NCBI GenBank assembly: GCA_048881705.1
Contig: JBHLSH010000005.1
Span: forward strand, 1 to 64,000
DNA length: 64,000 nt
Direction of reading: 5' to 3'
Source: Candidatus Heimdallarchaeota archaeon
GTDB lineage: Archaea; Asgardarchaeota; Heimdallarchaeia; Hodarchaeales; Hodarchaeaceae
The notes below the pieces were generated by a model. The model saw only the letters and a program-made list of their open reading frames with translations, had not been told where the DNA came from and searched no databases. The translations under genes were made by a program, and so were the position numbers. This document shows, in pieces, positions 336 to 38,416 of the stretch (position 1 is the first letter of the stretch; each line of letters begins with the position of its first letter).

Positions 336-1595
336 ATGACTCATATGGACAAACCGGCAATACAAGGAGGGAAACCAGTTCGGTCAAGCCCACTTCCCTT
401 ATTTGATGTAAGTCTTGGCGATGAAGAAATAGATAATGTATTAGATGTGTTAAAATCTAGAAAATTGGTTTCAACGCACGGAAATTGGGCAAATGAGTTT
501 GGAAAACTAGTTAAGGAATATTTGGGTTCCAAATACATAGTAATGGCAAATAACGGTACAAGTACGATCCATTTAGCGCTTATTGCCTTGGGTGTTGGGC
601 CTGGAGACGAAGTGATTTGCTCTCCGCTTGGATGGATTTCTTCTGGTACACCCGTTCTTTATCAAAACGCCATTCCCATCTATGCTGATACTGATAGCCA
701 ATATGGATTTATAGATCCAATAGATATTGAAAAGAAGATTACTCATAGAACTAAGGCTATCTGTGTAGTCCACACTTGGGGCCTTCCCGCAGATTTGGAT
801 CCAATCCTTGAAATCGGAGAAAAACATGGAATCCCAGTAATTGAGGATGCAGCAGAAGCACTCGGAGGAACTTATAAAAATAAAAAGATAGGTACAATGG
901 GGACATTTGGCAGCTTTTCTACGGTTTGGAATAAGATAATTACGACGGGAGAAGGAGGATTTCTTATATCTGAAAACGAAGAGCTCATTGAGAAGGCACG
1001 TCGATTTGGAAACTTTGCAAAGGTTCCCGGCAGAGGGGATTATTTTAGCGGATTAGGCTATAACTACCGGATGACAGAGTTAATGGGGGCTTTGGGTTTT
1101 GCGCAAATTAAACGAATTGATGAGTTAGTGACGAAAAGAAGAAAAAATGCTGCATATCTTACGAAACAACTTGATTCACTCAATATTGAAGGGCTTATCA
1201 CGCCAAAGGAACCTAAATGGGGTAATAATTCCGGAACAAAGGGTGTTTACTGGAAATATACAGTAATCTTGGAACCAGATAAATTTTTTACCTCACGAGA
1301 TCAGATCCTAAAAGCAATACAAGCTGAAGGGGTCTTGAGTGCCGGCCCAGTGGAGCCTGATAATCTCCAGCCCTTTTACCTCAAGAAAGAAGTTTATGGA
1401 AGGACTAAATGTCCTTGGGAGTGTAAATATGCTGACGTTCCTCAAGATATAGATTATGCTAATATGTGTCCTACAGCTAAGGTATATTCTGACAAAATTA
1501 TATGGTTAACAGGTTGTAGTCCAAATCTAACACAGAATGATCTCGACTCTATTGTTGATGCTGTTGAAAAGGTTGCGAAATGGTATCAAACTTAG
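336..1595 (+). CDS. DegT/DnrJ/EryC1/StrS family PLP-dependent sugar aminotransferase
   Basis: NNGTSTIHLAL, AICVVHTWG, VIEDAAEA, SFSTVWNKIITTGEGG (PLP lysine), GYNYRMTE; AGGAG just upstream of the ATG. Confidence 0.93.
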   Translation: MTHMDKPAIQGGKPVRSSPLPLFDVSLGDEEIDNVLDVLKSRKLVSTHGNWANEFGKLVKEYLGSKYIVMANNGTSTIHLALIALGVGPGDEVICSPLGWISSGTPVLYQNAIPIYADTDSQYGFIDPIDIEKKITHRTKAICVVHTWGLPADLDPILEIGEKHGIPVIEDAAEALGGTYKNKKIGTMGTFGSFSTVWNKIITTGEGGFLISENEELIEKARRFGNFAKVPGRGDYFSGLGYNYRMTELMGALGFAQIKRIDELVTKRRKNAAYLTKQLDSLNIEGLITPKEPKWGNNSGTKGVYWKYTVILEPDKFFTSRDQILKAIQAEGVLSAGPVEPDNLQPFYLKKEVYGRTKCPWECKYADVPQDIDYANMCPTAKVYSDKIIWLTGCSPNLTQNDLDSIVDAVEKVAKWYQT

Positions 1596-2028
1596 ATTAG
1601 AGGGATATCTTGGAGTGATTTGAGAGGACACTAGTGGAATTCGTCATATTGGAGAAGTTTTGTAACATGTATATGTACGAGCAAACCAAATCGAAATCTC
1701 TTCCTTATTTCATATTTTGCGTCAATGTAGTTTTAAAACAGCCTCAAGAAAACCCTTAAAAATAAAACGTTTTGTTGGTCTTACGGATTTCGGAATTTTC
1801 GCGATTTGGCTTCATCAATGATATCAGGTTTTCCTTCAACCTAGATCATTGTTAAATTAGTTTTCCTAGTAGTGATATGCGTAATAGTGAATTCTCTATC
1901 CTTTTTTCAAGATATAAATTAGATAGATTTAAATATATGTTTGTTATTAATCCATGATTCGTAATTTAGGGATCTATACCCCCTGAATTCAGTTAAACCA
2001 TATAAAAACAAAAATTGGTGAAGAAAAA

Positions 2029-3642
2029 TTGGCAATAATGCAATTTGAGATCATCAACGATATCCTTTCACTACCTATTAACTTTCTGTTCAACGGCGGC
2101 CCCGTGATTTTTATGCCCGTCATTATTGTAATCTTGGGCCTCATTTTCAGACAGAGTTTATCAAAGTCAATACGTAGTGGTATTCTCATCGGCATTGGTT
2201 TCATCGGGATTTTCACTTTTGCCTTTGATGTATTTGGAGGAACGATAGGACCCGCAGCTGTGGCATTTGTTGAAAATACTGGAGTTTCCTTAAGTGTGAT
2301 CGATGTGGGCTGGGGCTTAGCTAGTAGTATTACTTGGGCGATGCCAACAGCATTTGGAGTAATTATCGTGTGTTTCCTAGTGAATCTAATTATGTTAGCA
2401 ATCGGAACTAGGAAATTCGACTTTCCTGAAGGTCTCCCCATCTTTGGTGGTAGATCAGTCGGTCTTGGTACAATGACATTGGACGTGGATCTTTGGAATT
2501 ATTGGGCCTTTGGATTTACAGCCGCTTTAACCTATGTAGTAACCCAATCCTACCTTGGCGAGCTCATGGCCTATGTTGTCGCAATGATAGCAGCAATAAT
2601 TCATGCAATCATGGCCTATAAGATTTCGGATTGGATTGCTCCATGTATGGCGGATCCTGAGAACTTTAATCTTCCAGGAATTTCACTTCCTCATGGAAAC
2701 GCAATGATGGCACCGTATGCTTTTGGGATCGACAAAGTATTACGGAAAATCCCCGTCATTGGAACGGCTAAAGCAGACCCCGAATCAGTTCAAGAAAGAT
2801 TTGGTCTTATTGGTGAACCAATTTTCCTTGGATTGGTGATAGGAGGTTTTATAGCGATATTAGGTTACTACCCGCTACTAACGCCATTCACCGTCGATAA
2901 TTTATTGGACTTTCTGCTCACAGTGTCAAACGTTGCAATGACAGCTGCTGCAGTTATGTATTTGATACCCAAAATGGTTGCAGTGCTGATGGAAGGATTG
3001 ATACCACTTTCGGAAGGTATTCGGGACTATATCACTCAAAAGTATCCAGGCCGTGAATTCATCATAGGAATGGATATGGCAATTATTGTGGGATATCCTG
3101 CTGTTGTCGCAGTAGCCCTCATCATGATTCCTATATCTATTGTGTTGTCGGTTGCTCTTAGCGTCATCCCAGCACCATTTGGAATGGTAGTACTTCCGTT
3201 TGCAGACCTAGCTGGTATGGTGTTTTATTCCGTATTAGCTGTAATGCCATCCAAAGGTAATATCGTTCGCGGAGTTATCTCAGGGACAATTCAGCTTGTC
3301 GTTATTTTATATACTGCTGGTATAATGGCCCCGTTAATGACCGCAGCTGGAGCAGTAGCAATAAGTGCAGGAACATTCGCTATCGATCCGGACATCACGG
3401 CTCTGTTTGGCACAGATCTTACTATTACGTCGCTGGATGCAGGAAGTAATTCCGTTCACTGGATGATCATTCTGCTATTCTTCTGGCTATTCCCGCTCGC
3501 AGAATGGACTACGCTGTTTACAGATTTAGGATATTTGGCATGGTTTGCAATCGATATCGCCTGGTGGGTTGGATACATTCTTCTTTGGATGTACTTGAAG
3601 GACGAACCAACCAAGATTTCGGAGGAGAAACTTCATTCCTAG
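2029..3642 (+). CDS. gatC: PTS galactitol-family EIIC component (GatC/SgcC-like); start may be ATG at 2038
   Basis: Multi-TM protein with GatC motifs: IDVGWG, LDVDLWNYW, GISLPHG, IGEPIFLG, PLSEGIR, EFIIGMDMAIIVG, LPFADLA. Confidence 0.9.
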   Translation: MAIMQFEIINDILSLPINFLFNGGPVIFMPVIIVILGLIFRQSLSKSIRSGILIGIGFIGIFTFAFDVFGGTIGPAAVAFVENTGVSLSVIDVGWGLASSITWAMPTAFGVIIVCFLVNLIMLAIGTRKFDFPEGLPIFGGRSVGLGTMTLDVDLWNYWAFGFTAALTYVVTQSYLGELMAYVVAMIAAIIHAIMAYKISDWIAPCMADPENFNLPGISLPHGNAMMAPYAFGIDKVLRKIPVIGTAKADPESVQERFGLIGEPIFLGLVIGGFIAILGYYPLLTPFTVDNLLDFLLTVSNVAMTAAAVMYLIPKMVAVLMEGLIPLSEGIRDYITQKYPGREFIIGMDMAIIVGYPAVVAVALIMIPISIVLSVALSVIPAPFGMVVLPFADLAGMVFYSVLAVMPSKGNIVRGVISGTIQLVVILYTAGIMAPLMTAAGAVAISAGTFAIDPDITALFGTDLTITSLDAGSNSVHWMIILLFFWLFPLAEWTTLFTDLGYLAWFAIDIAWWVGYILLWMYLKDEPTKISEEKLHS

Positions 3643-3643
3643 T

Positions 3644-3712
3644 TTTTTCGGGAAATAGCTTTTTCCTCTTCCCTTCCTTTTCTTTTTTTCAAAAAGCGAC
3701 TTCTTTTTTTTT
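3644..3712 (+). terminator. Pyrimidine/oligo-T tract between EIIC and EIIB genes, possible archaeal intrinsic terminator
   Basis: Several T runs (T6-T9) directly after the gatC stop codon. Confidence 0.35.
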
Positions 3713-3805
3713 GTAAAATTCAGGTCATCAAAGTATTTGGTCACTAAGATTTTAAAACGAAAAACTGTTTACGTTATGATAACCTATTCTTAGAGAGATC
3801 TCACG

Positions 3806-4126
3806 TTGTCCATAAAAAAAGTACTAGTTGCATGTGGAACAGCGATCGCTACGGCTACTGTCGTGGCATCAAAAATCAAGGAAGAATGTAAAGCCAATAA
3901 AATAAGAGTAGATGTCTCTCAATGCAAATCATTTGAAGTTAAAGCGAAAGTTAATTATCAAAAGTACGATTTGGTTGTTTCATCAACCAAAGTTTCTGGT
4001 GAAACAACGACAGAAGATGGGAAAAGAGTAATAAATAATGTTCCAATTCTTAACGCCATTCCTTATCTTTCTGGTGTAAATAAAGATAAATTAACTCAAG
4101 ATATAATTGCTATTCTCAAAGAATAA
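3806..4126 (+). CDS. gatB: PTS galactitol-family EIIB component
   Basis: VLVACGTAIATAT phospho-Cys loop matches GatB (ACGGAVATST); 106 aa; TTG start. Confidence 0.9.
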   Translation: MSIKKVLVACGTAIATATVVASKIKEECKANKIRVDVSQCKSFEVKAKVNYQKYDLVVSSTKVSGETTTEDGKRVINNVPILNAIPYLSGVNKDKLTQDIIAILKE

Positions 4127-4305
4127 TTAATCAGGCTCTTCCTCCTGCTGTTTGACCCTTCACATCTAATTTTCACTCTATTAGTCTCAGATAATGCAAT
4201 TCAGACAATTTCGTTACTTTGTGGTTAATTGCTATTACTTATAATTAATATAATGCTCTTTGAAAATATAATTCATGGAATTAATAACATCTGGTAGGAT
4301 TATTA

Positions 4306-4935
4306 ATGGGTAAAAAATCGATTCTTAAAACTAAACGCGAAATGGCAACAATTAGTCGTCAAATCTATGATAAGGGGCTCACTTATAGCACGGGTGGAAA
4401 TATTAGTGTAAAGCTAGGAGATGACCAGTTCCTAATTAAACCCGCAGATTTCTGTTTTGGCGATATGCGGGCTAAGGATTTTATAACTATTAACAAAAAA
4501 GGAGAAATTTTGGATGGTCAACCAGGAAATAGGCCATCAAGCGAAACTAAAATGCATCTAGCTGTTTATCGTGACATTAAAGATGCCAAGGCCGTGATTC
4601 ATACTCATTCTCCTTATACAATGGTGTTTGCAACAAGTGGAAAACCGATTGAAGCTGCAACAACGTTTGCAGAGGAAGAAATTGGCTTGGTACCAGTAGC
4701 GCCTTATCGAGATCCAGGTACACAAGCTTTAGCGGATATTGTTGGTAAAACATTACAAAACGTGGAAAAAGGATTCTATCCCCCACCTAACCAACCCGCT
4801 ATCGCATGTCTATTGGAACGACACGGTGTCTTATTAGCTGGTAAGAATCTCAAACAGACCTTTTATGCTTTAGAATCATTAGAAACTACTGCAAGAACTC
4901 TATTGTGGATGAAAGTCCTTGAAATTGCTGGCTGA
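4306..4935 (+). CDS. Class II aldolase/adducin family protein (FucA-like)
   Basis: GGNISV, PSSETKMH, VIHTHSPY and LLERHGV provide the Glu + 3 His Zn site. Confidence 0.9.
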   Translation: MGKKSILKTKREMATISRQIYDKGLTYSTGGNISVKLGDDQFLIKPADFCFGDMRAKDFITINKKGEILDGQPGNRPSSETKMHLAVYRDIKDAKAVIHTHSPYTMVFATSGKPIEAATTFAEEEIGLVPVAPYRDPGTQALADIVGKTLQNVEKGFYPPPNQPAIACLLERHGVLLAGKNLKQTFYALESLETTARTLLWMKVLEIAG

Positions 4936-4950
4936 TTCAAAGTGATCTAA

Positions 4951-6015
4951 ATGATCCCTTCTAAGATGAAAGCAGGTCTAATGTATGGACCAGGGGATGT
5001 TCGAATTGAAATGGTGCCTACTCCTAAACCTGAGGACAATGGAGTGCTCATTAGAGTCGAAGCTGTTGGAATTTGCGCAACTGACGTGAAAAAATATATA
5101 GGTCTCTCATCTGTTAGTTTTCCTATTATTCTAGGCCACGAGTTCGCGGGAACGATCGTTTCAATGGGAAAAAATGTCAATGGATACAAAATTGGAGAAA
5201 AAGTGAGTGCAAACCCAGATATTCCCTGTTTTCAGTGTAAATATTGTATTCAATCTAAATACAATCTCTGCACTCAATTATCAGTAATTGGTTATGGTAC
5301 CGAGGAAATCGAACCGATTAATGGTGCCTTTGCTCAGTATGTGAAAGTTCCAACTTGGAACTTAATCCGATTACAACATTCAATCACCTTTGAGGAAGCT
5401 ACCTTCATAGAACCATTTGCTTGCGTTATCCGAAGCTTCAATCAAGGAAGAGTTTCAATTTCAGATGAGATAGTCATTTTAGGGGACGGAAGGATCGGTT
5501 TACTTCACATTCAACTTGCAAGGGAGTATGGAGTAAAAGGAATCTATGTGACAGGTCTGTCGGATAATAGACTTGCAATAGCTAGGGAATTAGGGGTAAA
5601 ATCAGCAATCAATGTTCAAAATACAGATCCTGTGGATTTTATTTCAAAAGTGACCTATGATGGGGCCGATGTTGTCTTTGACACAACTGGCAGTGTTCCC
5701 GCAGCTGAACAAGGTGTCCAAATGCTTGCACCACATGGTAGATTCGTGTCTTTTGCGGGATTTCCAAAGTCTCAATCATCCATGAAGATAAATCCTCGCG
5801 ATTTACACTATAAAGAGATAACATTAACCGGATCCTTCGGATATGGATCATTAATGGATTATTATTTGGCAGAACAGTTAATTAATTCTAGAAAAATTGA
5901 TGTAGATATACTAACGACTTACACACGACCTCTAGACGATTTAGAGAAGGGATTAAAAGAAATTGCAGAATTAAAGAGTATAAGAACTATTCTTAAGCCG
6001 AATATGAATTCTTAG
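4951..6015 (+). CDS. Zn-dependent polyol(-phosphate) dehydrogenase (MDR family)
   Basis: GICATD, GHEFAG, structural Zn motif CFQCKYCIQSKYNLC, IEPFAC, GDGRIG. Confidence 0.92.
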   Translation: MIPSKMKAGLMYGPGDVRIEMVPTPKPEDNGVLIRVEAVGICATDVKKYIGLSSVSFPIILGHEFAGTIVSMGKNVNGYKIGEKVSANPDIPCFQCKYCIQSKYNLCTQLSVIGYGTEEIEPINGAFAQYVKVPTWNLIRLQHSITFEEATFIEPFACVIRSFNQGRVSISDEIVILGDGRIGLLHIQLAREYGVKGIYVTGLSDNRLAIARELGVKSAINVQNTDPVDFISKVTYDGADVVFDTTGSVPAAEQGVQMLAPHGRFVSFAGFPKSQSSMKINPRDLHYKEITLTGSFGYGSLMDYYLAEQLINSRKIDVDILTTYTRPLDDLEKGLKEIAELKSIRTILKPNMNS

Positions 6016-6029
6016 CGGAAGGATCCACA

Positions 6030-7088
6030 ATGGTTTCAGAGACAAAAAATCATGAAAACATTATCAAATTCATACATCTACTTGACAAATGGAGAAAACA
6101 TTATCCCACTGATCAGGAAATCGTCGCTTTAACCGCTGCTGGTTCTAAGAAGTATTCTAGAGAAGTAAATAGATCGGTTAAGATTGCTCGGGATCTTCAA
6201 ATTCCTGATAATTTTCCATTATTAGACCGTCTTCTTCCCCCCGCGGAAACGATTACTGCGGCTTTATTGATCGTTTTCGTTGTTGTAATACTGTCATCCT
6301 TTTGGAGTATTTTTTCGTGGGCTGATGATCTCCTTTCTAATCCGCTGTATGTATTTACCACACTTATTTCTGTCCTTTTTACTGCCACAATTAGGTACCA
6401 ACATCGTCAAAAGACCAAGGAATATTCAGAAGAAAATAAAACACAGTTGAGAGAATTTAAACACATCGCAGATGATTTGGTTAATCAACTCTTACCTCTT
6501 GCCATTGCAGGGGAGTTTGAACCACGATCCTATCCCTTTCAACTCAACTATGATGATTATAAGGGATTACGGTTGATGGGACGAAGTAGTGGTACGTTTA
6601 AGTTAATGTTTTCCACTCCTCATACCATATTGGGGCCATCAAAAGATGCAAAAATTATGACCTCTTTTGGGCGTTTAGGATTTTACGACGGACTTAGAGG
6701 ATTTCAAGGGGGAAGGCCAGCAATTAAAATGGTCGTTAGCAAAATAGCTGGAGAATATAAAGCTTATTTGAAAAGATGTGCAGATTGGAGGCAGACTGGA
6801 GTTGATATTCTAGTCCGTAAAGCGGGAGAGGATGATATCAAGCAAACTTACCTGATTATTGATGATCGTGATGTTTGGACTACTGATCTTTTACTGGAAG
6901 AGATGGATATCAAAACTCCAACTAAAATCCAAAAAATCCAGAACAATTCGAAAAGATTGAATGTTCTTGAAAATTTTGAAAAACTCTGGCAGCAGTCACA
7001 AGTTGCAACAGAGCTGGAAGCAATTTCCTGGCGAGCGTATTTCAAAGAGAAGGCCGAGTTCGAACGTAAGAAGAAAGGAGAAATTTAG
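6030..7088 (+). CDS. Hypothetical membrane protein (2 TM) with possible C-terminal TrmB/PLD-like domain
   Basis: Two hydrophobic helices near aa 75-122; the C-terminal pattern (VDILVR...YLIIDDRDVW...NFEKLWQQS) resembles the TrmB effector fold. Confidence 0.6.
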   Translation: MVSETKNHENIIKFIHLLDKWRKHYPTDQEIVALTAAGSKKYSREVNRSVKIARDLQIPDNFPLLDRLLPPAETITAALLIVFVVVILSSFWSIFSWADDLLSNPLYVFTTLISVLFTATIRYQHRQKTKEYSEENKTQLREFKHIADDLVNQLLPLAIAGEFEPRSYPFQLNYDDYKGLRLMGRSSGTFKLMFSTPHTILGPSKDAKIMTSFGRLGFYDGLRGFQGGRPAIKMVVSKIAGEYKAYLKRCADWRQTGVDILVRKAGEDDIKQTYLIIDDRDVWTTDLLLEEMDIKTPTKIQKIQNNSKRLNVLENFEKLWQQSQVATELEAISWRAYFKEKAEFERKKKGEI

Positions 7089-7120
7089 TTATCAGCATCT
7101 ACCTAACTGGATTTAGTTAT

Positions 7121-8887
7121 TCAATTCTGGAAATCCTTCAATAATTGATAGATATCTTCTGGATCGTTTGATCTTAAGACCTTCTCTCCTAGAATCTTAC
7201 ATTCTAAATAAGTAATTTCAGTAATAATTTTCTTAGCACGTAGAAGTGAATGTGGTTGCATACTTAATTCATCGATTCCTAATCCTATTAGAAGAGGAAT
7301 CGCCAGAGGTTCACTAGCCAATTCTCCACAAACTCCAACCCATTTTCCATGAGAATGAGCTCCTTCAATAACTCCCTGAATTAATCTGATTACTGAAGGA
7401 TGGTAATGGTCATACAAATAAGCAACTGACTCATTTGTCCTGTCAGTAGCTAGTGTATACTGAGTCAGATCATTGGTTCCAATGCTAAAGAAATCGACAA
7501 AAGGGGCGATAATATCCGCGCAAATAGCTACAGAGGGAACCTCAACCATAATTCCAACTTCTACGGCCCTATTAATCTCGTAACCTTCGTTCTGGAGGTT
7601 TTGCTTTGTAGTCCCCATTAAACGCATTAAGCTACTAACTTCTTTTGCTGTTGTAATCATAGGAAACATTATTTTTAGATTACCGTGGACCGAAGCTCTT
7701 AATGCAGCTCTAATCTGAGTCGTGAGTATCTGTTTAAATTCGCTCTGGGATGCCAGGCGGGTACCTCGAAGCCCCAAGAATGGATTTACCTCTTTAGGGA
7801 GATTAATATAAGCTAGTTCCTTATCTCCCCCTATATCTAAGGTTCGTATAATAACTGGGTATTTTTCCATTCCTTCTAAAAATTTTCTAAAAATTGAGAA
7901 CAATTCCTCTTCTGTTGGAAGGTTTATCCGATTTAAATACATGAATTCCGTTCTAAGAAGACCCACTCCTTCGGCACCGACTTTCATTGCGGAACCTAAA
8001 TCATCTATTGATCCAAGATTTACATTAAGTTGAATTTCATGATTATCTTTTGTTATTGCTCGTACTTCCTTATATCTTTGTAGGAGCTTCTCCTCCTCGG
8101 CATACTGAACTTTTTTAGACTCGTATGATTGGATGGTATCAAGATCGGGATCAATAATGACCTCTCCATTGGAGCCATCAACTACAAGTGTATCAGAGTT
8201 GGAAATAGTTTCTAATAAAGTTGAAGTTCCAGTACCGACCACCGCAGGTATATTAAGAGATCTTGACAATATAACAGCGTGGGAGGTAGGGCCTCCCGTC
8301 TCGGTTGCGATTGCTAAGACCATCGATTTGTTCATTTCAGCTGTATCAGATGGGGTAAGTTCATCAGCTACAATTATCACCGCTTCGTCAAGATCTGACA
8401 GTTCCGAAGTGTATTGATCAAGAAGAGCCTGTAAAATTTGATTTCCAGCATCTTTTATATCCTGGCCTCGTTCCTTGAAATAGTCATCCTCCATTGCCTC
8501 GAATTTTCTTTGCCATTTCTCTGAAACGCTTTTGATGGAGTCTACAAGTTGTATATTATTCTTAATCTTTTCTATAATCTCTGATTGAAAATCCTCGTCC
8601 TCTATCATCAGCATTTGCGCATCAAAAACGCCTGCTTCATCACTACCGATTTCTTCTTCAACTTTAGAAACAATTCGCGACAATCTCTCTAATGCTTTAT
8701 TCGTAGCGTTCTTAAACAGGATTATTGCCTCATTAGGATTAAGATCCTGAAATTCCCCCCCAATTATCATTTGAATATCTGGTGCTTTAAATACTCGTGC
8801 CTTCCCAATTGCAATGCCAGGGGAACCAGGGATCCCGATAATTTTTTTCATTTTGGGCCCAAGTAGTTGATCTTCAATCTTCGCCAA
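7121..8887 (-). CDS. ptsI: PTS Enzyme I (PEP-protein phosphotransferase)
   Basis: GGPTSHAVILSRSL (phospho-His), GVGLLRTEF, RTLDIGGDK, NPFLGLRG, SIGTNDLTQY, GVCGELA. Confidence 0.97.
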   Translation of the reverse strand: MAKIEDQLLGPKMKKIIGIPGSPGIAIGKARVFKAPDIQMIIGGEFQDLNPNEAIILFKNATNKALERLSRIVSKVEEEIGSDEAGVFDAQMLMIEDEDFQSEIIEKIKNNIQLVDSIKSVSEKWQRKFEAMEDDYFKERGQDIKDAGNQILQALLDQYTSELSDLDEAVIIVADELTPSDTAEMNKSMVLAIATETGGPTSHAVILSRSLNIPAVVGTGTSTLLETISNSDTLVVDGSNGEVIIDPDLDTIQSYESKKVQYAEEEKLLQRYKEVRAITKDNHEIQLNVNLGSIDDLGSAMKVGAEGVGLLRTEFMYLNRINLPTEEELFSIFRKFLEGMEKYPVIIRTLDIGGDKELAYINLPKEVNPFLGLRGTRLASQSEFKQILTTQIRAALRASVHGNLKIMFPMITTAKEVSSLMRLMGTTKQNLQNEGYEINRAVEVGIMVEVPSVAICADIIAPFVDFFSIGTNDLTQYTLATDRTNESVAYLYDHYHPSVIRLIQGVIEGAHSHGKWVGVCGELASEPLAIPLLIGLGIDELSMQPHSLLRAKKIITEITYLECKILGEKVLRSNDPEDIYQLLKDFQN

Positions 8888-9146
8888 ATCTATTCTGAAT
8901 TAATTCCCAAAGGACATTCCTTGCTTCTTCTGCATCCGTTCCATCTATAGTGACGATAATTTCATCATTCATGGCTGCACCTAACGCCAAGACACCCAGT
9001 ATTTTCTTAGCATCAACAACTTTGCCGTTTTTTTCAACGGTGATCTTTGAGTCGTATTTTTTGGAGGTTCTAACGAAAATCGCTGCGGGCCGGGCGTGCA
9101 AGCCCACCTTGTTTTTCAAGACCGTGGTAAACTGCAGTTTCGCCAT
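8874..9146 (-). CDS. ptsH: Phosphocarrier protein HPr
   Basis: GLHARPAA (His17); 90 aa; overlaps the ptsI start by 14 nt. Confidence 0.96.
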   Translation of the reverse strand: MAKLQFTTVLKNKVGLHARPAAIFVRTSKKYDSKITVEKNGKVVDAKKILGVLALGAAMNDEIIVTIDGTDAEEARNVLWELIQNRFGED

Positions 9147-9171
9147 AGGTGGTTCGTCTCAGACTTTACTG

Positions 9172-9624
9172 TCATTTTGGAGTAATTAAAGACTTTAAGG
9201 TTTCCTGAATCTCCTCAAAATCGTCGTGTGTTGCTATCTTTTGAATCAGATCAGGTTTACTGAAAACGTTTTCTGTCATGGCTGAAAGATTCGGTACAAC
9301 CATCTCTGGATTCTCAATTGCAAGTAGAAAGACAAGGTGCACAAAAATGCTGACCTCTGGATCCTCCATACACTCCCATTGAATTGGATCCTTGAGAATT
9401 CCGACTGCAATTGCCGATTTCTTTACGTGTTCAGTTTCGGCGTGAGGAATTGCAACATTGTGTGGACCTTCCAGTTCAAGTGCGGTAGGAAATTCCAGCT
9501 CCCGCTTATGAATCGCGTCCTCGTAAGAGTCCATGACATACCCGGTACTGCTAAGATAGCGAACGAGTTCGTGAATAATCTCACGCTTATTCCCTGCAGT
9601 TGATCTTTTTACAAAAATATCCAA
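9172..9624 (-). CDS. gatA: PTS EIIA component (GatA/fructose-mannitol fold)
   Basis: RELEFPTAL and VAIPHAE (phospho-His); TTG start with AGGAG upstream. Confidence 0.88.
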   Translation of the reverse strand: MDIFVKRSTAGNKREIIHELVRYLSSTGYVMDSYEDAIHKRELEFPTALELEGPHNVAIPHAETEHVKKSAIAVGILKDPIQWECMEDPEVSIFVHLVFLLAIENPEMVVPNLSAMTENVFSKPDLIQKIATHDDFEEIQETLKSLITPK

Positions 9625-9806
9625 TTATGCTCTCCTACTTCAGTGATTCACATCGACTAAACTTCTACTCTGACCATTGATTGGCATTCTCTTTCTTATT
9701 TTCATTTTTTATTAAAATTCAGTAGGGAGAAATGTCGGAGACATCATCTGGAGAATGATATCTGATGTATTGCACAATCGCATTTCCTAACAAGATCTGA
9801 ACCAAT

Positions 9807-10247
9807 TTACATTTTACTTCCAAATAACAATACAAAGACTTTTCGTTCACGAGGCTCGTTGTATTCAATGAAGTAAACACGTTGCCATGGACCAAGTACC
9901 AGTTTACCATTTTCAATACCCAAAAAAACCGAATTCCCGATTACCTGTGCTTTCACATGAGATGCAGCGTCTAACGGAGTTTCTTCAGTATGGTGCCAGT
10001 TCCTGGTTTCTGGTATCAATTCCCATAGCACTTCAGAAACATCCATTCCCACCCCCGGATCTGAACCTTCGTTGATAACAACACCTGTGGTAGTATGCAG
10101 GCTATACGCGACCATAAGGCCCGCCTTGATAGGATTTTCTTCACTGAAATCTATAAGGTCCTGGGTGATATCATAATATTCTCCAGCTTTTTTCGTTTTC
10201 ACGACAATGTATCTGGTGAGGAATTCAATATCTGGCATCAGGATCAC
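9807..10247 (-). CDS. yjbQ: YjbQ (UPF0047) family protein
   Basis: SLHTTTGVVINE, AASHVKAQVIG, LVLGPWQRVYFIE. Confidence 0.9.
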   Translation of the reverse strand: MILMPDIEFLTRYIVVKTKKAGEYYDITQDLIDFSEENPIKAGLMVAYSLHTTTGVVINEGSDPGVGMDVSEVLWELIPETRNWHHTEETPLDAASHVKAQVIGNSVFLGIENGKLVLGPWQRVYFIEYNEPRERKVFVLLFGSKM

Positions 10248-10311
10248 TTGTTTTACAGATGGAATAAAAAGAATAGTATAGGTTATTGTGGTTGATTATG
10301 GGCGTCACTTT

Positions 10312-10330
10312 ATAACTCAAATTGAGTTAT
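10312..10330. promoter_or_regulatory. Perfect 9-1-9 inverted repeat ATAACTCAA-A-TTGAGTTAT, candidate operator
   Basis: Read directly from the sequence; lies in the divergent intergenic region between yjbQ and sgcQ. Confidence 0.55.
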
Positions 10331-10462
10331 CTAGTGTGCATAACCTCGTATATTTTTAAAGAAAAGCTCTAACAAAAAAAACAAAATTACCACCTGATTT
10401 GTTCGTCAGGAATAATCTCCGACGGATCCACATTATCAAATTTCATTTAGTTACACACAGTC

Positions 10463-10470
10463 TTATATAA
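10463..10470 (+). promoter_or_regulatory. Candidate archaeal TATA box for sgcQ
   Basis: TTATATAA about 20-25 nt upstream of ATG 10489. Confidence 0.35.
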
Positions 10471-10488
10471 TACTCAAGGCGAACAAAA

Positions 10489-11292
10489 ATGACACTTTTG
10501 AAAGATTTATTCCAAGCTGAAAAGCCCGTTATTGGTATGGTTCACTTCCCACCGCTTCCTAGTACATATGAATACGATGATGTAGCGGGAATGGAAAAAA
10601 TTGTATCTAGTGCTCTTTCCGATATAAAAGCCTTACAAGATGGAGATATCGACGGCTTACTGTTTTGTAATGAAGGGGATCGCCCATATGCCAAAGGAGT
10701 GGACAAAATAATCGCCGCATCAATGGCAGCTGCGATAGGTGAACTGAAAACAGAAATATCCATCCCTTTTGGCGTGGACATTATGTGGGATCCGATTGCG
10801 GCTCTCGCAGTTGCGAAAGCGACTGGAGCTAAATATGTACGTGGAGTATTCACAGGCGCCTTCGCGGGAGATATGGGTTTTTTTGATCCACCGGGCGCGG
10901 AAGCTTTTCGCTATAAAAAGGCAATCGAAGCTTTTGATGTCAAAGTTTTCAGCATTGTAAATGCAGAATTTGCCCATCCCCTGGATAGGCGTTCACTTGC
11001 CCTCATCGCAAAAGGCACCGTGTTTGTTGGAATTGCGGACGCTCTTTGTGTTTCTGGCCCAATGACTGGAATGGAAGCTCGGTTAGAGGAGCTACGAATT
11101 GTAAAAGAAAATTCTATGGGGGCACCTGTCATGATAAATACAGGGGCAAGAAAAGACAATATTTCAAAGCAACTAGATATTGCTGACGGTGTGATTGTTG
11201 GTACAAGTCTTAAATTTGATGGGGACACATGGAAAAATGTTGATCCAAAAAGGGTGGCAGATTTCATGGAGGTTGTAAAAACCAAAAGATGA
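10489..11292 (+). CDS. sgcQ: BtpA/SgcQ family TIM-barrel protein
   Basis: KPVIGMVHFPPLP, NEGDRPY, PFGVDIMWD, DALCVSGPMTG, ADGVIVGTSLKFDG. Confidence 0.92.
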   Translation: MTLLKDLFQAEKPVIGMVHFPPLPSTYEYDDVAGMEKIVSSALSDIKALQDGDIDGLLFCNEGDRPYAKGVDKIIAASMAAAIGELKTEISIPFGVDIMWDPIAALAVAKATGAKYVRGVFTGAFAGDMGFFDPPGAEAFRYKKAIEAFDVKVFSIVNAEFAHPLDRRSLALIAKGTVFVGIADALCVSGPMTGMEARLEELRIVKENSMGAPVMINTGARKDNISKQLDIADGVIVGTSLKFDGDTWKNVDPKRVADFMEVVKTKR

Positions 11293-11441
11293 AAGGAGTT
11301 CGGTCGGACAGTTTACGATAGAAAAGTGATTCTTTATTAGAAAAACTTGAAACTGTGTCTTTTACTCGGTATTTCTTGCGGTTTCCGTTTGAAGTGGCTA
11401 TCTAGAATTTCTAGGTCCATGTTTGTTGGAGTTAATAGGAT

Positions 11442-13202
11442 ATGAACAAGATTCTAAGAATTAATATGACAGATTTGGCTGTAAATTGGGAGGATGTGCC
11501 CAAAAAGTACTCAGAATTAGGCGGAAGAGGTTTGACTTCTAGCCTTATATATGATGAAGTCGATCCAACGTGTGATGCATTGGATTCTCAAAATAAGTTT
11601 GTAGTTGCTCCAGGGTTTATTACAGGAACAAGTGCACCTACATCGGGACGTTTATCGGCTGGAGCGAAGTCTCCCCTAACCGGAACCATCAAGGAAGCAA
11701 ATGCTGGAGGTCTGAGTCCCCAAAAACTAGCACGGCTCGGAATAAAGGCACTGATAATTGAGGGAATGCCTCAATCGAATGATTGGTACAATATTTATAT
11801 CACGAAAGAGAAATGTGAGATCGTTAAGGCCAACGAATATGCTGGAATGGGATTATACAAGCTTATAGAGAGGTTATGGGAAAAGTACCCAAATAAGCCA
11901 GGGATTTTCGGATGTGGTTTAGCCGGTCAAAAATTAATGCTTTCTGCTGGGATTTTTGGAAATAATCCAGACAATACAGATCCAGGTCGGTACGCTGCGA
12001 GAGGTGGACTGGGTGCCGTGCTCGGATCGAAGAGAGTTATTGCGATAGTAGTGGATGATTCTGGTACAACAAGATTGAAAGCTCAAAATCAAGAAATGTT
12101 TGATGCCGGCAGAAAAAAGTTGGTAGAGGGTCTAGTTAAGCATGAAGCCAAAGAAGCTCTCGCAGATTATGGTACGGAAGGATTAATGAACGTCATGAAC
12201 GAATCAGGAGGATTACCCACAAGAAGTTGGCATAGAGGTCATTTCTCAAAGGCAGATAAGATTTCTGGGGAGGTAATTCATGAGCTTGTGGCACGCACGA
12301 AAAAGAAGTTTCCGAAGTCTCAGGCTAGAACTGGTTGGCCGTGTAATCCTGGCTGTGTTATTGCGTGTGCAAATAAAGTCCCGTACCCATTAGATCATAA
12401 AAAGGCAGGAGAAGTTCATGTGTCCACTCTTGAATACGAAACTGCAATGGCGCTAGGGTCTTTGTGTGAAATCGATTCCTTGTATCATTTAGCTGAATTA
12501 AATCGGATTTGTAATGATCTGGGAGTAGATACCATTGAAACAGGGAATACACTGGCATTGGCTATGGAGGCAGGTTTGTTAGAATTTGGCGATGGGTCTG
12601 CTGCGGTGGATTTGTTGAATAAAATCGCATCTGACGAACCAATAGGCCGATTACTTGGTTTGGGGGCCTTAAGATTCGGCCAAGCATATGGAATAAGCAC
12701 GAAAGTTGCCCATGCCAAGGGCCAATCCTTACCTGCATTCGATCCAAGACCACTCAAAGGAATAGGCATAACTTACGCTACAAGTCCCCAAGGAGGAGAT
12801 CATACTGCGGGATACACCATCTTTTCTGAAGTTGAAGGGGTTAATCCTGTGGATCCGATGGATCCCAAAAAAGGTGAAATGTCTCGATTCTATCAATCGT
12901 TCACCGCTTTTATTGACTCAATTGGATATTGCTTGTTTACGGCTTATGCATTATTAGATATTCCATCTGCAATGGAAGGAATGGTTGAAACAGCAAAGGC
13001 GATGCTCAATTTAGATGATTTAGATATTGAAGAATACGGAATGAAAATCCTCAAACTGGAACGTGAATTCAACATGAAAGCTGGATTCACCACGAAACAT
13101 GACAAGATTCCTGAATTCTTTTATGAAATTCCTCTCCCCCCTCATAATGTCATATTTGATGTTCCAAAGGACGAAATAAGAAAAGTGTTTAAAGACGATT
13201 AA
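11442..13202 (+). CDS. aor: Aldehyde:ferredoxin oxidoreductase (W/Mo-pterin AOR family)
   Basis: KSPLTGTIKEANAGG, RGGLGAVLGSK, CNPGCVIAC, EYET, CNDLGVDTI, GGDHTAG. Confidence 0.94.
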   Translation: MNKILRINMTDLAVNWEDVPKKYSELGGRGLTSSLIYDEVDPTCDALDSQNKFVVAPGFITGTSAPTSGRLSAGAKSPLTGTIKEANAGGLSPQKLARLGIKALIIEGMPQSNDWYNIYITKEKCEIVKANEYAGMGLYKLIERLWEKYPNKPGIFGCGLAGQKLMLSAGIFGNNPDNTDPGRYAARGGLGAVLGSKRVIAIVVDDSGTTRLKAQNQEMFDAGRKKLVEGLVKHEAKEALADYGTEGLMNVMNESGGLPTRSWHRGHFSKADKISGEVIHELVARTKKKFPKSQARTGWPCNPGCVIACANKVPYPLDHKKAGEVHVSTLEYETAMALGSLCEIDSLYHLAELNRICNDLGVDTIETGNTLALAMEAGLLEFGDGSAAVDLLNKIASDEPIGRLLGLGALRFGQAYGISTKVAHAKGQSLPAFDPRPLKGIGITYATSPQGGDHTAGYTIFSEVEGVNPVDPMDPKKGEMSRFYQSFTAFIDSIGYCLFTAYALLDIPSAMEGMVETAKAMLNLDDLDIEEYGMKILKLEREFNMKAGFTTKHDKIPEFFYEIPLPPHNVIFDVPKDEIRKVFKDD

Positions 13203-17442: not shown

Positions 17443-18690
17443 TTGAACAATTCTCGACCTAATAATATTAAAATTCCCTCTAAAAGGATCCCAATCCTAT
17501 TTCGTCATTCGGTGGCCGAGATCCCAACTACCACGTATGGAGCGTTCGCAATATACAAATATCCAGCCAAATTTATACCTCAGGTAATTGCGTACGTTTT
17601 AAAGAATTTTGCTAAACCTGGTATGAAAATATTCGACCCTTTTGCAGGGTACGGTACTGTTGGAGTCGTATCACGGGTATATGGGTTTGATTATGAATTA
17701 TGGGATCTCAATCCATTACTTGGAACTATTCATGACACCATATTGTCAGAAGAGTCCAAACTTAGTGTTGCCAAACTATTGAATGATCTGAAGCATTCCT
17801 CAGAAGAGTTCGTGCCGAAATGGAAGAATCTCGAATACTGGTTTCCCGAAGAATTTCTTTCTACTCTTATTAAAACTTGGGGTTATATTCATAATCTACC
17901 CAAGAACAGTAGTTTGCAGAAAAAACTGACCATTCCTATGATTAATGTAACCCGTTACTTCTCCTGGTGCGATGAAAAGGTTCATAAATTATATAAGTCT
18001 AAATATTCAAAAAAAAAGGTTGACGAACTTTTACAGGGGAATTGGAAATCAAGATTCTATTTAATGCTGGAGAAGGAGATTCGAGACCTTCTAGCCAAAT
18101 TGGATGAATATAAATTTTTAAAACCAAAACCCGTCAATTACACGGTAAGACATGGCGTAGATACCCTCGAAACGGTTTTGGATGAGGAAAAACATATTCT
18201 TCTTACGTCTCCACCGTATTTACAGGCCCAAGAATATATTAGATCAACGAAATTGGGTTTATATTGGTTAGGATATGATGATGCAACGATTAGGGCCCTT
18301 GGCAAAAAAGAAATCCCCTATCGATCCGTTGATAAAATTAGGATAAAATCAAATCTATATTACGAGTGTAAGGATAAGATAGATTCTAAAAAGCTAAAGG
18401 AATTGTATGAGAGGTATTTTCACTCAATCTTGAAAGCTATTACAAATCTGGCACAGAAAATCAGTGATTATTTGTGTATTTTCATCGGTCCCGCCTCTAT
18501 ACGAACCGTTCCAGTTCCTATTGACGATATTATTGTAGAACATATGCAAGAACACGGATGGATTCACGACGTGACCTTCATCGACACAATAGTTGGCCAT
18601 GTGATGTTTAAATCGCGAATAAATCCCGCTACTGGCCTTAAAAATCAGCGAATTCAATATGAACATCTTGCTATTCTTAAGAAAGAATGA
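17443..18690 (+). CDS. Amino-DNA methyltransferase, probably N4-cytosine (alpha order)
   Basis: YPAKFIPQV, DPFAGYGT (motif I) before TSPPY (motif IV). Confidence 0.82.
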   Translation: MNNSRPNNIKIPSKRIPILFRHSVAEIPTTTYGAFAIYKYPAKFIPQVIAYVLKNFAKPGMKIFDPFAGYGTVGVVSRVYGFDYELWDLNPLLGTIHDTILSEESKLSVAKLLNDLKHSSEEFVPKWKNLEYWFPEEFLSTLIKTWGYIHNLPKNSSLQKKLTIPMINVTRYFSWCDEKVHKLYKSKYSKKKVDELLQGNWKSRFYLMLEKEIRDLLAKLDEYKFLKPKPVNYTVRHGVDTLETVLDEEKHILLTSPPYLQAQEYIRSTKLGLYWLGYDDATIRALGKKEIPYRSVDKIRIKSNLYYECKDKIDSKKLKELYERYFHSILKAITNLAQKISDYLCIFIGPASIRTVPVPIDDIIVEHMQEHGWIHDVTFIDTIVGHVMFKSRINPATGLKNQRIQYEHLAILKKE

Positions 18691-18705
18691 TACAGGCTTT
18701 GAGAA

Positions 18706-23472: not shown

Positions 23473-23592
23473 ATCAGAACAACCTTACCCTAGGAGTTAG
23501 AACCGTCTCGGTTTTATTAGGAAGGCAATGTATTTTACCTGTCATAACATAAGTATGGGCTATCAATAGAATTTAACTGGAATTGTTGTGAA

Positions 23593-25104: not shown

Positions 25105-25155
25105 TGATCACTCTTCTATCAATCTTGTGAAAAAAGGGAAAATCATGTTTCAAGG

Positions 25156-38252: not shown

Positions 38253-38416
38253 TATCCCGTATTTAAAGTTAATTGTGTGAATACATGGTGTAAATTTCCG
38301 CGGAACTACCGATCAGAATTGGAAGCGTGGAGGAATTCATTACAATATGACCACGATTACTCGAATTACGGGAAGAAATCACTTGGTAAAAAACCATTCG
38401 ATTGGAGAGGCAATTC

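Follow-up and report, generated by a model that had tools for sequence, protein, structure and literature searches.

The window analysed here (the whole stretch of 64,000 nucleotides, from genome G000) probably represents chromosomal Hodarchaeales (Asgard) DNA carrying one complete galactitol-family phosphotransferase system (PTS), encoded in an island that would be a long-standing resident of the lineage, inherited vertically within the genus and repeatedly deleted. The PTS machinery is ordinary, yet according to a published survey (the one paper found that addresses the point) Asgard archaea have no PTS protein.

Judging from the conserved catalytic residues, phosphate would pass from PEP to His203 of EI, His17 of HPr, His61 of EIIA and Cys10 of EIIB, and end on a polyol-like or sugar-like substrate crossing EIIC. 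Most likely the zinc polyol-type dehydrogenase encoded alongside would then oxidise the phosphorylated product, leaving the class II aldolase-family enzyme to cleave or epimerise it. Accessory steps may come from the BtpA/SgcQ, YjbQ and DegT genes and perhaps from the aldehyde:ferredoxin oxidoreductase. EI and HPr would serve solely one permease, the foremost candidate for a local sensor would be the orphan membrane protein, and this genome would hold a reduced version of the island, from which the DeoC aldolase is absent.

Components and layout of the island

The five PTS components (EIIC, EIIB, EIIA, HPr and EI) lie where the first-pass annotation had placed them, intact and with their phospho-acceptor residues kept (Table 1). 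Read from the translations, the active sites are His203 (in GGPTSHAVI) and Cys520 (in GVCGELA) of EI, His17 (in VGLHARPA) of HPr and His61 (in VAIPHAE) of EIIA, and the phospho-acceptor of EIIB is Cys10 (in LVACGT). The ATG at 8851 (576 aa) is more likely the start of EI than 8887, because a relative has kept the MK-I-GIP N-terminus. Each component is single-copy in the genome, in agreement with the self-sufficiency claimed earlier, and neither a Dha kinase nor mannose-family PTS parts were found elsewhere in this genome.

Table 1. Features of the PTS island and its borders, with positions in the window.
Feature	Position	Strand	Basis or remark
DegT/DnrJ/EryC1-type PLP sugar aminotransferase, 419 aa, left island end	336-1595	+	PF01041 1.6e-86
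Spacer, 434 bp, site of a DeoC-family aldolase in relatives	1596-2028		likely EIIC promoter inside
EIIC permease, galactitol (Gat) family, 537 aa	2029-3642	+	PF03611 1.9e-60; TIGR00827 310 bits
EIIB, 106 aa	3806-4126	+	PF02302 8e-12; GatB model NF007643 64.5 bits
Class II aldolase/epimerase-family enzyme, 209 aa	4306-4935	+	PF00596 9e-49
Zinc-dependent medium-chain dehydrogenase, polyol-dehydrogenase group, 354 aa	4951-6015	+	ADH_N, ADH_zinc_N domains
Orphan membrane protein, lineage-restricted, 352 aa	6030-7088	+	no Pfam match; AlphaFold2 model
EI (PEP-protein phosphotransferase)	7121-8887	-	TIGR01417 619 bits vs cut-off 342
HPr, 90 aa	8874-9146	-	PF00381 2e-26; TIGR01003 89.5 bits vs cut-off 47.9
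EIIA, EIIA_2 type, 150 aa	9172-9624	-	PF00359 4.6e-27; GatA model 62.7 bits
YjbQ/UPF0047 protein	9807-10247	-	TIGR00149 116.6 bits vs cut-off 67.75
BtpA family protein (family of E. coli SgcQ), right island end	10489-11292	+	PF03437 1.9e-74
Aldehyde:ferredoxin oxidoreductase	11442-13202	+	AFOR_N, AFOR_C domains; 150 nt behind BtpA gene

EIIC exceeds its bacterial relatives by about 70 aa, the surplus mapping to a C-terminal extension and small inserts, and its TIGR00827 score stays below the cut-off of 542 bits. None of the three EII proteins, the aldolase or the dehydrogenase reaches an NCBIfam equivalog cut-off that would define a substrate; the polyol named at first pass is a family-level guess. 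No gatY or gatZ aldolase gene occurs among the island ORFs scanned.

The genes form two convergent rows, as first described, which meet at 7088/7121 around catabolic genes; the class II aldolase, the dehydrogenase and the orphan membrane protein lie between the PTS genes. The unit that is conserved goes beyond the PTS stretch first noted, from the DegT gene at one end to the BtpA/SgcQ gene at the other. The nearest solved structures are L-fuculose-phosphate aldolases for the class II aldolase, and xylitol, sorbitol and threonine dehydrogenases together with galactitol-1-phosphate 5-dehydrogenase (4a2c) for the dehydrogenase. YjbQ is the first gene of the minus-strand row YjbQ-EIIA-HPr-EI and keeps this position in all carriers, and the BtpA gene is confined to those genomes of the genus (9 of 22) that have the island or a remnant of it. 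The aldehyde:ferredoxin oxidoreductase, intact beside BtpA in this genome and in its sister species G001 and present only as fragments in G011, is possibly linked to the island. Upstream of DegT the contig breaks off after 335 bp, in a run of 27 T, and does not show the left border. The likely EIIC promoter is formed by TTTAAATAT at about 1928-1936, with GGTGA ahead of the TTG start; about 290 nt at the 3' end of the 1596-2028 spacer are conserved in G001.

The orphan protein has no match to any Pfam family, TrmB included, and only 10 close homologs besides the window's own among 5.8 billion proteins; where organism names are given, all are Asgard, mostly Hodarchaeales. Its AlphaFold2 model (pLDDT 79.9) comprises a three-helix N-domain, a transmembrane hairpin, a long helix and a C-terminal PLD-fold domain that lacks the HKD motif. 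The TrmB family (PDB 2f5t, 3qph; TrmBL2 5box) shares the fold of the C-terminal domain (about 123 residues at an rmsd of 3-4 Å; Foldseek E 1e-4 to 1e-2) and the order of small helical N-domain, long helix and PLD-like domain. However, the orphan protein shows no detectable sequence similarity to that family and has the hairpin inserted, and catalytic PLD nucleases (NucT, Nuc) outscore TrmB on its fold, the VIA-align Z being 13.7 for NucT, 12.9 for FAM83 and 10.8 for the TrmB sugar-binding domain. It is through fold similarity alone that this protein becomes the best candidate for a local, TrmB-like sensor.

Conceivably, the substrate is an amino- or deoxy-sugar or an amino-polyol entering an undescribed PTS-fed route, in which DegT would take the amino group off the phosphorylated substrate, the dehydrogenase adjust the oxidation state and aldolase-type enzymes split the product; we regard this scheme as tentative. 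DegT adjoins the PTS in all carriers and has been gained, kept and deleted along with it (a 56-aa remnant is left in one PTS-deleted relative), and the solved structures nearest to it (perosamine synthetase, scyllo-inosose aminotransferases) include enzymes working on free keto-cyclitols in addition to nucleotide sugars. The enzyme set is also unlike a gat or sgc operon, gatYZ, sgcE and sgcX being absent among the island ORFs scanned. Against the scheme, no enzyme reaches an equivalog cut-off, and DegT enzymes chiefly serve sugar synthesis rather than breakdown. Moreover, DegT stands 434 bp from EIIC and its dS between G000 and G001 is much above that of neighbour genes, so it may be a separate unit.

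Probable inheritance, deletion and function in the genus

The order DegT-EIIC-EIIB-aldolase-dehydrogenase-orphan-EI-HPr-EIIA-YjbQ-BtpA recurs in G021, G006, G011 and G004, and partly in G001, which makes six species of the genus with this genome counted. EI is missing from 16 of the 22 genus genomes, and G014, G020 and G002 bear deletion scars. Between G000 and G001, dN/dS is 0.02-0.12 for every island gene (EIIC 0.08); all are under purifying selection. A fresh acquisition is not borne out by this shared gene order, purifying selection and erosion by deletions, which fit the long residence preferred here.

G000 and G001 share a shorter island without DeoC between DegT and EIIC. The DeoC gene was scanned in G011 (PF01791) and has orthologs at the same spot in G002, G004, G006 and G021; the corresponding gap at the DegT-EIIC site in four relatives is about 1 kb, and tblastn detects no DeoC remnant at 1596-2028. 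An AbrB-PhoU gene flanks the island elsewhere, and no ortholog of it was found in G000 or G001. With neither DeoC at the locus nor an AbrB-PhoU ortholog, the pathway here may be incomplete or differently regulated. Together with the losses among relatives, this could be taken to mean that the island of this genome is a decaying relic, supporting no growth on its substrate and heading for the deletion seen elsewhere. We consider this improbable: all reading frames are intact, the catalytic residues are kept and the EIIC promoter region is conserved between G000 and G001. As both genomes already have the DeoC-less layout, their dN/dS values indicate that selection acted since DeoC was lost. A DeoC copy elsewhere in this genome is 63% identical to the island type (the paralog of other genomes, 42-47%), and the AbrB-PhoU gene, 80-83% conserved in relatives with the PTS deleted, is perhaps a mere neighbour that does not belong to the system.

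It is quite unlikely, too, that the phosphorelay is mainly regulatory, sensing PEP/pyruvate like the bacterial nitrogen PTS instead of feeding the cell. EI and HPr do serve a single permease, some other Asgard genomes couple them to a soluble dihydroxyacetone kinase, and the island encodes a sensor-like protein. Yet EIIC is a full-length permease under purifying selection, directly beside catabolic enzymes, and bacterial-style control parts were not found: HPr kinase and PRD domains or regulators are absent, and Lys occupies the position equivalent to the regulatory Ser46 of Gram-positive HPr.

Host and origin

An archaeal 16S gene (1382 bits) and a true actin (440 bits), both found in the genome, confirm the Asgard host proposed earlier, whose relatives are named Hodarchaeales, Hodarchaeota or Heimdallarchaeota. 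In Logan's own assembly of the sequencing runs, a single 8,720-bp contig spans 1895-10614 with a depth of 10-13 across island and flank, and in two further samples pieces of both occur at 100% identity. The runs listed as holding the sequence include no RNA run. At a distance of 4 kb from the island lies a HEAT-repeat gene that 20 of the 22 genus genomes, a closed one among them, carry in single copy. In tetranucleotide make-up the first 10 kb are not an outlier; they lie near the 5th percentile on the first principal axis.

That last value, a bin contamination estimate of 7.5%, the position of the island less than 10 kb from the contig end and the typically bacterial nature of PTS genes might suggest a bacterial contaminant or a chimera misjoined to an Asgard contig; this reading has a negligible chance and is rejected as far as these analyses reach, because island and flanks recur in assemblies of five other species (in G011, 240 kb inside a 631-kb contig), Logan's own assembly bridges them at even depth and the HEAT-repeat gene nearby belongs to the core of the genus, while the orphan-protein gene inside the island has close homologs that are Asgard wherever named and bacterial EI or EIIC identity never exceeds 47%.

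In trees of EI and EIIC (unrooted, with biased bacterial sampling) the Hodarchaeales sequences form their own deep clades, each with 100% support, and the nearest relatives outside are 43-47% identical, so that a donor cannot be named; the nearest named EI relatives are Bacillota. A distribution that is wide in bacteria and patchy in archaea leads us to infer that bacteria were the source of the island, which would have reached this lineage long ago. Of 400 Asgard genomes sampled, about 4% have EI; they belong to at least five genera and combine it with three different partner systems, so the case is rare, but not unique. Such a patchy, genus-level distribution says nothing on the eukaryote ancestor.

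Comparison with known systems

The islands of sister Hodarchaeales genomes share the genus-level lineage, gene order and components, and G000 and G001 differ from them in the loss of DeoC, the AbrB-PhoU neighbour not found and the intact aldehyde:ferredoxin oxidoreductase behind BtpA.

E. coli GatABC with GatD and GatYZ (TC 4.A.5) likewise has EIIA (EIIA_2), EIIB (Cys near the N-terminus) and EIIC (PF03611/TIGR00827) as separate polypeptides and a zinc medium-chain dehydrogenase adjoining the permease, and among NCBIfam models those of GatA, GatB and GatC score best on the island proteins. However, all scores lie below the equivalog cut-offs, no bacterial EIIC exceeds 40% identity, the archaeal EIIC is the longer one by about 70 aa, a class II FucA/AraD-family enzyme is present with no GatY/GatZ tagatose-bisphosphate aldolase among the ORFs scanned, and EI and HPr are encoded inside the archaeal island. 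The E. coli sgc operon (SgcA, SgcB, SgcC, SgcQ, SgcE, SgcX and SgcR) also combines a Gat-family EIIA/B/C set with a BtpA-family (SgcQ-type) gene. The SgcE epimerase, SgcX peptidase and SgcR regulator have no counterpart among the island ORFs scanned; the archaeal island has DegT, YjbQ, the dehydrogenase and the class II aldolase instead.

Gat-type pentitol/arabitol PTS operons of Bacillota (Listeria, Enterococcus, Bacillus methanolicus) carry polyol-phosphate dehydrogenases. In both these operons and the island, a Gat-family permease lies directly beside a zinc medium-chain dehydrogenase with a presumed role in oxidising the polyol phosphate, but none of the pentose-phosphate enzymes (epimerase, isomerase, transketolase) belongs to the island, and the sequences share little identity.

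In archaea the PTS is regarded as rare, and one operon of Haloferax volcanii has been suggested to be laterally acquired (PMC2841640). This haloarchaeon (fructose PTS HVO_1494-1499, HVO_2101-2106 and a Dha kinase operon) resembles the present case in having a complete bacterial-type EI/HPr/EII set, and a PF03611 match was also obtained in it as a control. By contrast, the host described here belongs to the Asgard archaea and not to the Halobacteria phylum, its EI forms a separate lineage, and its single permease stands without a Dha kinase, among other catabolic neighbours.

Components and distribution of the phosphotransferase system

The PTS found here is of the standard Gat-family kind, in a host lineage from which none had been reported before. 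ORF listing, profile scans and translations recover, at the same positions, all five components named in the first-pass annotation, with their phospho-acceptor residues kept (see table). Profile scans divide EI into N-terminal HPr-binding, mobile His and PEP-binding domains, and its translation includes the catalytic residues His203 (GGPTSH) and Cys520 (GVCGELA). For EI, the ATG at 8851 is the likelier start codon, given that a relative shares the N-terminus MK-I-GIP. In HPr, the equivalent of the phospho-acceptor His15 is His17, within the motif VGLHARP, and the translations likewise keep His61 of EIIA and the N-terminal Cys10 of EIIB.

The sole NCBIfam match of EIIC is TIGR00827 (310 bits, under its 542-bit cut-off), which makes it Gat-type (PF03611/TIGR00827) by model match and not ascorbate-type (Ula/Sga). 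EIIB scores 64.5 bits to the GatB model vs 21.8 to the ascorbate IIB model, and the scores of EIIA and EIIB are both under the NCBIfam equivalog cut-offs. The genes are convergent around catabolic genes, as had been described: EIIA, HPr and EI on the minus strand run towards the row from EIIC to the orphan gene on the plus strand. Every relay protein is present and single-copy in the genome, which agrees with the earlier view of a self-contained PTS. Phosphate would pass from PEP through EI, HPr, EIIA and EIIB in turn, reaching the substrate at EIIC.

Features of the island and the adjoining oxidoreductase gene
Feature	Position	Strand	Remarks
DegT-type aminotransferase	336-1595		upstream of EIIC
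EIIC	2029-3642	+	PF03611 at 1.9e-60, 205 bits
EIIB	3806-4126	+	GatB model; Cys10
Class II aldolase-family protein	4306-4935	+	PF00596, FucA/AraD family
Zinc medium-chain dehydrogenase	4951-6015	+	
Orphan protein	6030-7088	+	352 aa, no family match
EI	7121-8887	-	TIGR01417 619.5 bits vs cut-off 341.7; three Pfam domains
HPr	8874-9146	-	TIGR01003 89.5 bits vs cut-off 47.9
EIIA (EIIA_2 type)	9172-9624	-	GatA model 62.7 bits; His61
YjbQ	9807-10247	-	EIIA's strand, upstream of EIIA
BtpA (family of E. coli SgcQ)	10489-11292		diverges from YjbQ; PF03437 at 1.9e-74
Aldehyde:ferredoxin oxidoreductase	11442-13202		diverges from YjbQ

Complete PTS operons are known in archaea from Haloferax volcanii (PMC2841640). 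One paper states that Asgard MAGs and strain MK-D1 yielded not one PTS protein (PMC7997004), and the papers searched gave no further report of a PTS in Asgard archaea or Hodarchaeales. The island corrects that published statement. Among 400 sampled Asgard genomes, EI exceeds the cut-off in 15, from five genera, and a Gat-type EIIC is present in 11, from three genera; EI is thus rare, but not limited to one genus. The Asgard EI sequences form three separate groups in the tree, with unlike partners. The first is the Gat island; the second, a mannose-family PTS, is seen in a genus relative (G006:C329) that has a second EI/HPr pair beside mannose-family EIIA and EIIB genes; the third, in another Heimdallarchaeia family (G034:C1), is an operon that combines a glycerol facilitator and DhaK-DhaL-DhaM with EI and HPr. 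With the latter two loci counted, EI-dependent systems of at least three kinds exist in Asgard archaea. The genome that holds the window gave no match to a Dha kinase or a mannose-family PTS part, and the Gat-type EIIC of another Asgard family is a separate lineage in the tree.

Host, origin and history of the island

The window forms the initial 64 kb of a contig of 83 kb; the assembly totals 3.96 Mb (90.9% complete, 7.5% contaminated). The host, at first called a probable Asgard archaeon, is one: in its genome a 16S rRNA gene of archaeal type (1382 bits) occurs together with a true actin (440 bits to PF00022), and submitters gave the names Candidatus Hodarchaeales, Hodarchaeota or Heimdallarchaeota to the closest relatives of the island's proteins. 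A sister MAG that its submitter labeled Thorarchaeota belongs to the same genus according to the genome collection.

Within the reach of the tools used, five lines of evidence exclude contamination or mis-assembly of the segment. In tetranucleotide make-up, the first 10 kb lie inside the genome's range. The order DegT-EIIC-EIIB-aldolase-dehydrogenase-orphan-EI-HPr-EIIA-YjbQ-BtpA recurs in four further species of the genus and partly in a fifth; in Heimdallarchaeota archaeon SZ_4_bin2.246 (G011) the island lies 240 kb inside a 631-kb contig. Ribosomal protein S8e, sought as an archaeal marker, is not on that contig, which is tied to archaea by gene order and a genus-wide flank gene instead. Logan's own assembly of the sequencing runs yields an 8,720-bp contig that spans 1895-10614, from EIIC into BtpA, with a depth of 10-13 over both island and flank, and two more samples contain island and flank pieces at 100% identity; the two best runs may be source data, which makes the Logan evidence only partly independent. 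Of the 22 genus genomes, 20, among them a closed 4.9-Mb genome, have a single copy of the HEAT-repeat gene that lies here 4 kb from the island. Finally, the close homologs of the orphan gene all carry Asgard names where a name is given, mostly Hodarchaeales.

Trees of EIIC and EI each recover a clade with 100% support and pin no donor. The Hodarchaeales EIIC clade has a long stem; the nearest EIIC outside it (P0030) is 47% identical, and none of the named bacterial relatives exceeds 40% identity. The nearest named relatives of the genus EI clade belong to Bacillota (Thermovenabulum, Desulfurispora, Bacillales; 43-46%). A Bacillota donor was nevertheless not adopted, because the Hodarchaeales EI clade falls outside the sampled Bacillota clade, in an unrooted tree whose sample was picked by similarity to the query. 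The direction from bacteria to archaea is read from the distribution (wide in bacteria, patchy in archaea) and not from a rooted tree. We infer an old transfer from bacteria, with no donor assigned; the horizontal acquisition proposed in the first-pass annotation stands to this extent, but it was not recent, the island being ancestral in at least part of the genus and repeatedly deleted since.

Within the genus, EI is found in 6, EIIC in 7 and BtpA in 9 of the 22 genomes. The island goes back to an ancestor of at least part of the genus, and deletion scars in relatives show that it has been lost repeatedly: one retains the AbrB-PhoU gene, a 56-codon DegT stump, YjbQ and BtpA (G014), another has AbrB-PhoU joined straight to BtpA (G020), and a third keeps DegT-DeoC-EIIC-EIIB only (G002). 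Against the sister species (G001), dN/dS is 0.02-0.12 in every island gene, and alike in flanking genes. Synonymous divergence is lowest in the flanks (YjbQ, BtpA and the oxidoreductase, AFOR), at 0.3-0.5; EIIC, the dehydrogenase and the orphan gene come to 0.6-0.7, and EI, the aldolase and DegT reach 1.4-2.2. Such unevenness along 336-11292 hints at an exchange of some island parts with more distant alleles.

The island of this genome is a reduced version of the genus island. In relatives a DeoC-family aldolase gene sits between DegT and EIIC; here and in the sister species the DegT-EIIC spacer of about 430 bp holds no detected DeoC remnant. A DeoC copy off the island (C19:26539-27201; L136:8540-9211), 62-63% identical to the island type and neighboring pyruvate phosphate dikinase, glucose/sorbosone dehydrogenase and class I lysyl-tRNA synthetase genes, may be a relocated island gene. 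Seven relatives have an AbrB-PhoU gene (80-83% identity) on the flank of the island, of which no ortholog was found in this genome or the sister species; the gene may be a neighbor and not a part of the system, because it is conserved where the PTS is deleted. The contig opens with a run of 27 T (1-29), 335 bp before DegT, and a contig of the sister species (L133) likewise breaks just upstream of DegT, so that the island's left border is out of sight. With AbrB-PhoU found in neither genome, a rearrangement of the left flank in this sub-lineage is probable.

Run X4, from another sediment sample of the same study, contains over 2082-3483 an EIIC variant with 2.5-4.7% DNA difference, which indicates a second strain or close species with the island in that sample.

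Several other genes of the window deserve mention. Positions 17443-27558 encode a DNA methyltransferase cluster (two N6_N4_Mtase, one Eco57I/MmeI-like) with ResIII/SNF2 helicase and TPR protein genes, and 20-30 kb is the contig's most atypical stretch in tetranucleotide make-up; on both grounds this is probably a restriction or defence island. A full-length Hsp90/HtpG homolog lies at 38402-40318 (PF00183 at 7.8e-102), and a 532-aa protein with a thioredoxin domain fused to two V4R domains at 43288-44886. The membrane protein at 44878-46140 might be eukaryote-like: it weakly matches the GPI-transamidase subunit PIG-U (E 3.2e-5, 23.6 bits vs cut-off 24.5). The 537-aa product of 48247-49860 combines an N-terminal cupredoxin/CuA-like domain with a cytochrome d1-type beta-propeller (PF02239 at 1.7e-58), a layout that is unusual for a redox enzyme.

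Catabolic enzymes, orphan membrane protein and regulation

The solved structures nearest to the dehydrogenase are xylitol, sorbitol and threonine dehydrogenases and galactitol-1-phosphate 5-dehydrogenase, which suggests grouping it with the polyol dehydrogenases. It scores 143 bits against the GatD equivalog NF007642 (cut-off 550), and threonine, xylitol and sorbitol dehydrogenases match it as well as or better than GatD. The solved relatives nearest to the class II enzyme are fuculose-phosphate aldolases; it is the only aldolase-type gene among the scanned ORFs of 336-13202, where no GatY/GatZ tagatose-1,6-bisphosphate aldolase was found. Neither catabolic enzyme attains an equivalog cut-off. 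BtpA occurs within the genus only in genomes with the island or a remnant of it.

These enzymes suggest a coherent route, in which the dehydrogenase would oxidize a polyol phosphate to a ketose phosphate, which would then be split into triose phosphate and an aldehyde, and the aldehyde might be taken by the adjacent aldehyde:ferredoxin oxidoreductase. Because the enzymes miss their equivalog cut-offs and DegT travels with the island, the substrate may, from sequence, instead be an amino- or deoxy-compound. The oxidoreductase gene next to BtpA is intact in this genome and in the sister species; in G011 (L100:5464-5966) it occurs near BtpA only as fragments (101 + 42 codons, 64-68% identical), and it may therefore once have been an island member.

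In a set of 5.8 billion proteins the orphan protein has, itself aside, 10 close homologs; a profile search against 1.84 billion representatives gave only 23 relatives. A Pfam scan to E 10 and a PDB-sequence profile search returned transmembrane-segment noise only. An initial AlphaFold2 model built on 10 sequences rendered the C-domain poorly (pLDDT 62) and had insignificant Foldseek matches; it gave way to a 12-sequence model, in which the addition of three distant full-length relatives raised pLDDT to 79.9. This model predicts an N-domain of 50 residues in three helices, then a transmembrane hairpin and a long helix; residues 156-330 form a C-terminal domain with a PLD fold. By VIA-align, this domain reaches Z 13.7 with NucT, 13.1 with Nuc, 12.9 with the PLD-like domain of FAM83 and 10.8 with the sugar-binding (effector) domain of TrmB, with a Foldseek E of about 1e-4 for the model; a second, independent Atlas model likewise points to TrmB-family and PLD-like clusters. 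The catalytic HxK(x)4D motif was not seen in alignments inspected by eye, there being no His-x-Lys before the conserved IIDD strand, and the TrmB winged-helix (PF01978) gives no match to the orphan up to E 10. The preferred, if doubtful, reading of the modeled fold is a non-catalytic sensor like TrmB.

The HPr translation has Lys at the position of the regulatory Ser46 of Gram-positive HPr, and a profile search of the 90.9% complete genome gave no match to HPr kinase (PF07475) or PRD (PF00874). The region upstream of EIIC is conserved with the sister species and includes a TATA-like TTTAAATAT and GGTGA ahead of the TTG start; a sigma-70 promoter scan was set aside because the host is archaeal. 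An alignment of seven species revealed no conserved operator-like motif between YjbQ and BtpA, and tRNA and Rfam scans of the 64-kb window gave no matches. An archaeal rewiring of the PTS is conceivable and on balance unlikely: the relay and permease would feed an undescribed DegT/dehydrogenase/aldolase/BtpA/YjbQ/AFOR catabolic route, and the lineage-specific, membrane-tethered protein, whose TrmB-like PLD fold is without the catalytic motif, would sense sugar at the permease, replacing PRD/HPr kinase control.

A complete bacterial group-translocation system has thus been kept long under selection in Hodarchaeales, the order now placed nearest to eukaryotes. The island has no bearing on the origin of eukaryotes, because it is limited to part of one genus and often deleted. 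The module is compact and testable: it comprises the five PTS proteins, between three and five enzymes, and a single orphan membrane protein that resembles a sensor. Since its PTS parts are of the standard kind, expression in a bacterial host could show what these uncultured archaea eat.

Comparison with known systems

The E. coli sgc operon includes SgcE, of the ribulose-phosphate 3-epimerase type, and SgcX, of the M42 peptidase type. The island resembles this operon in the linkage of a BtpA-family, SgcQ-type gene to Gat-type EII genes, and differs from it in that the SgcE- and SgcX-type Pfam families are absent among the island ORFs scanned. With the Gat permeases of TC 4.A.5 it shares an EIIC of the PF03611/TIGR00827 type and separate EIIB and EIIA_2-type EIIA proteins. 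Unlike the E. coli gat operon, its dehydrogenase falls short of the GatD equivalog and GatY/GatZ are not among its scanned ORFs, while island relatives, though not the present locus or that of the sister species, have a DeoC-family aldolase in addition to the class II aldolase. Its control also departs from that of Gram-positive PTSs, in which Ser46 stands where this HPr has Lys, and the genome gives no match to an HPr kinase/phosphorylase or PRD.
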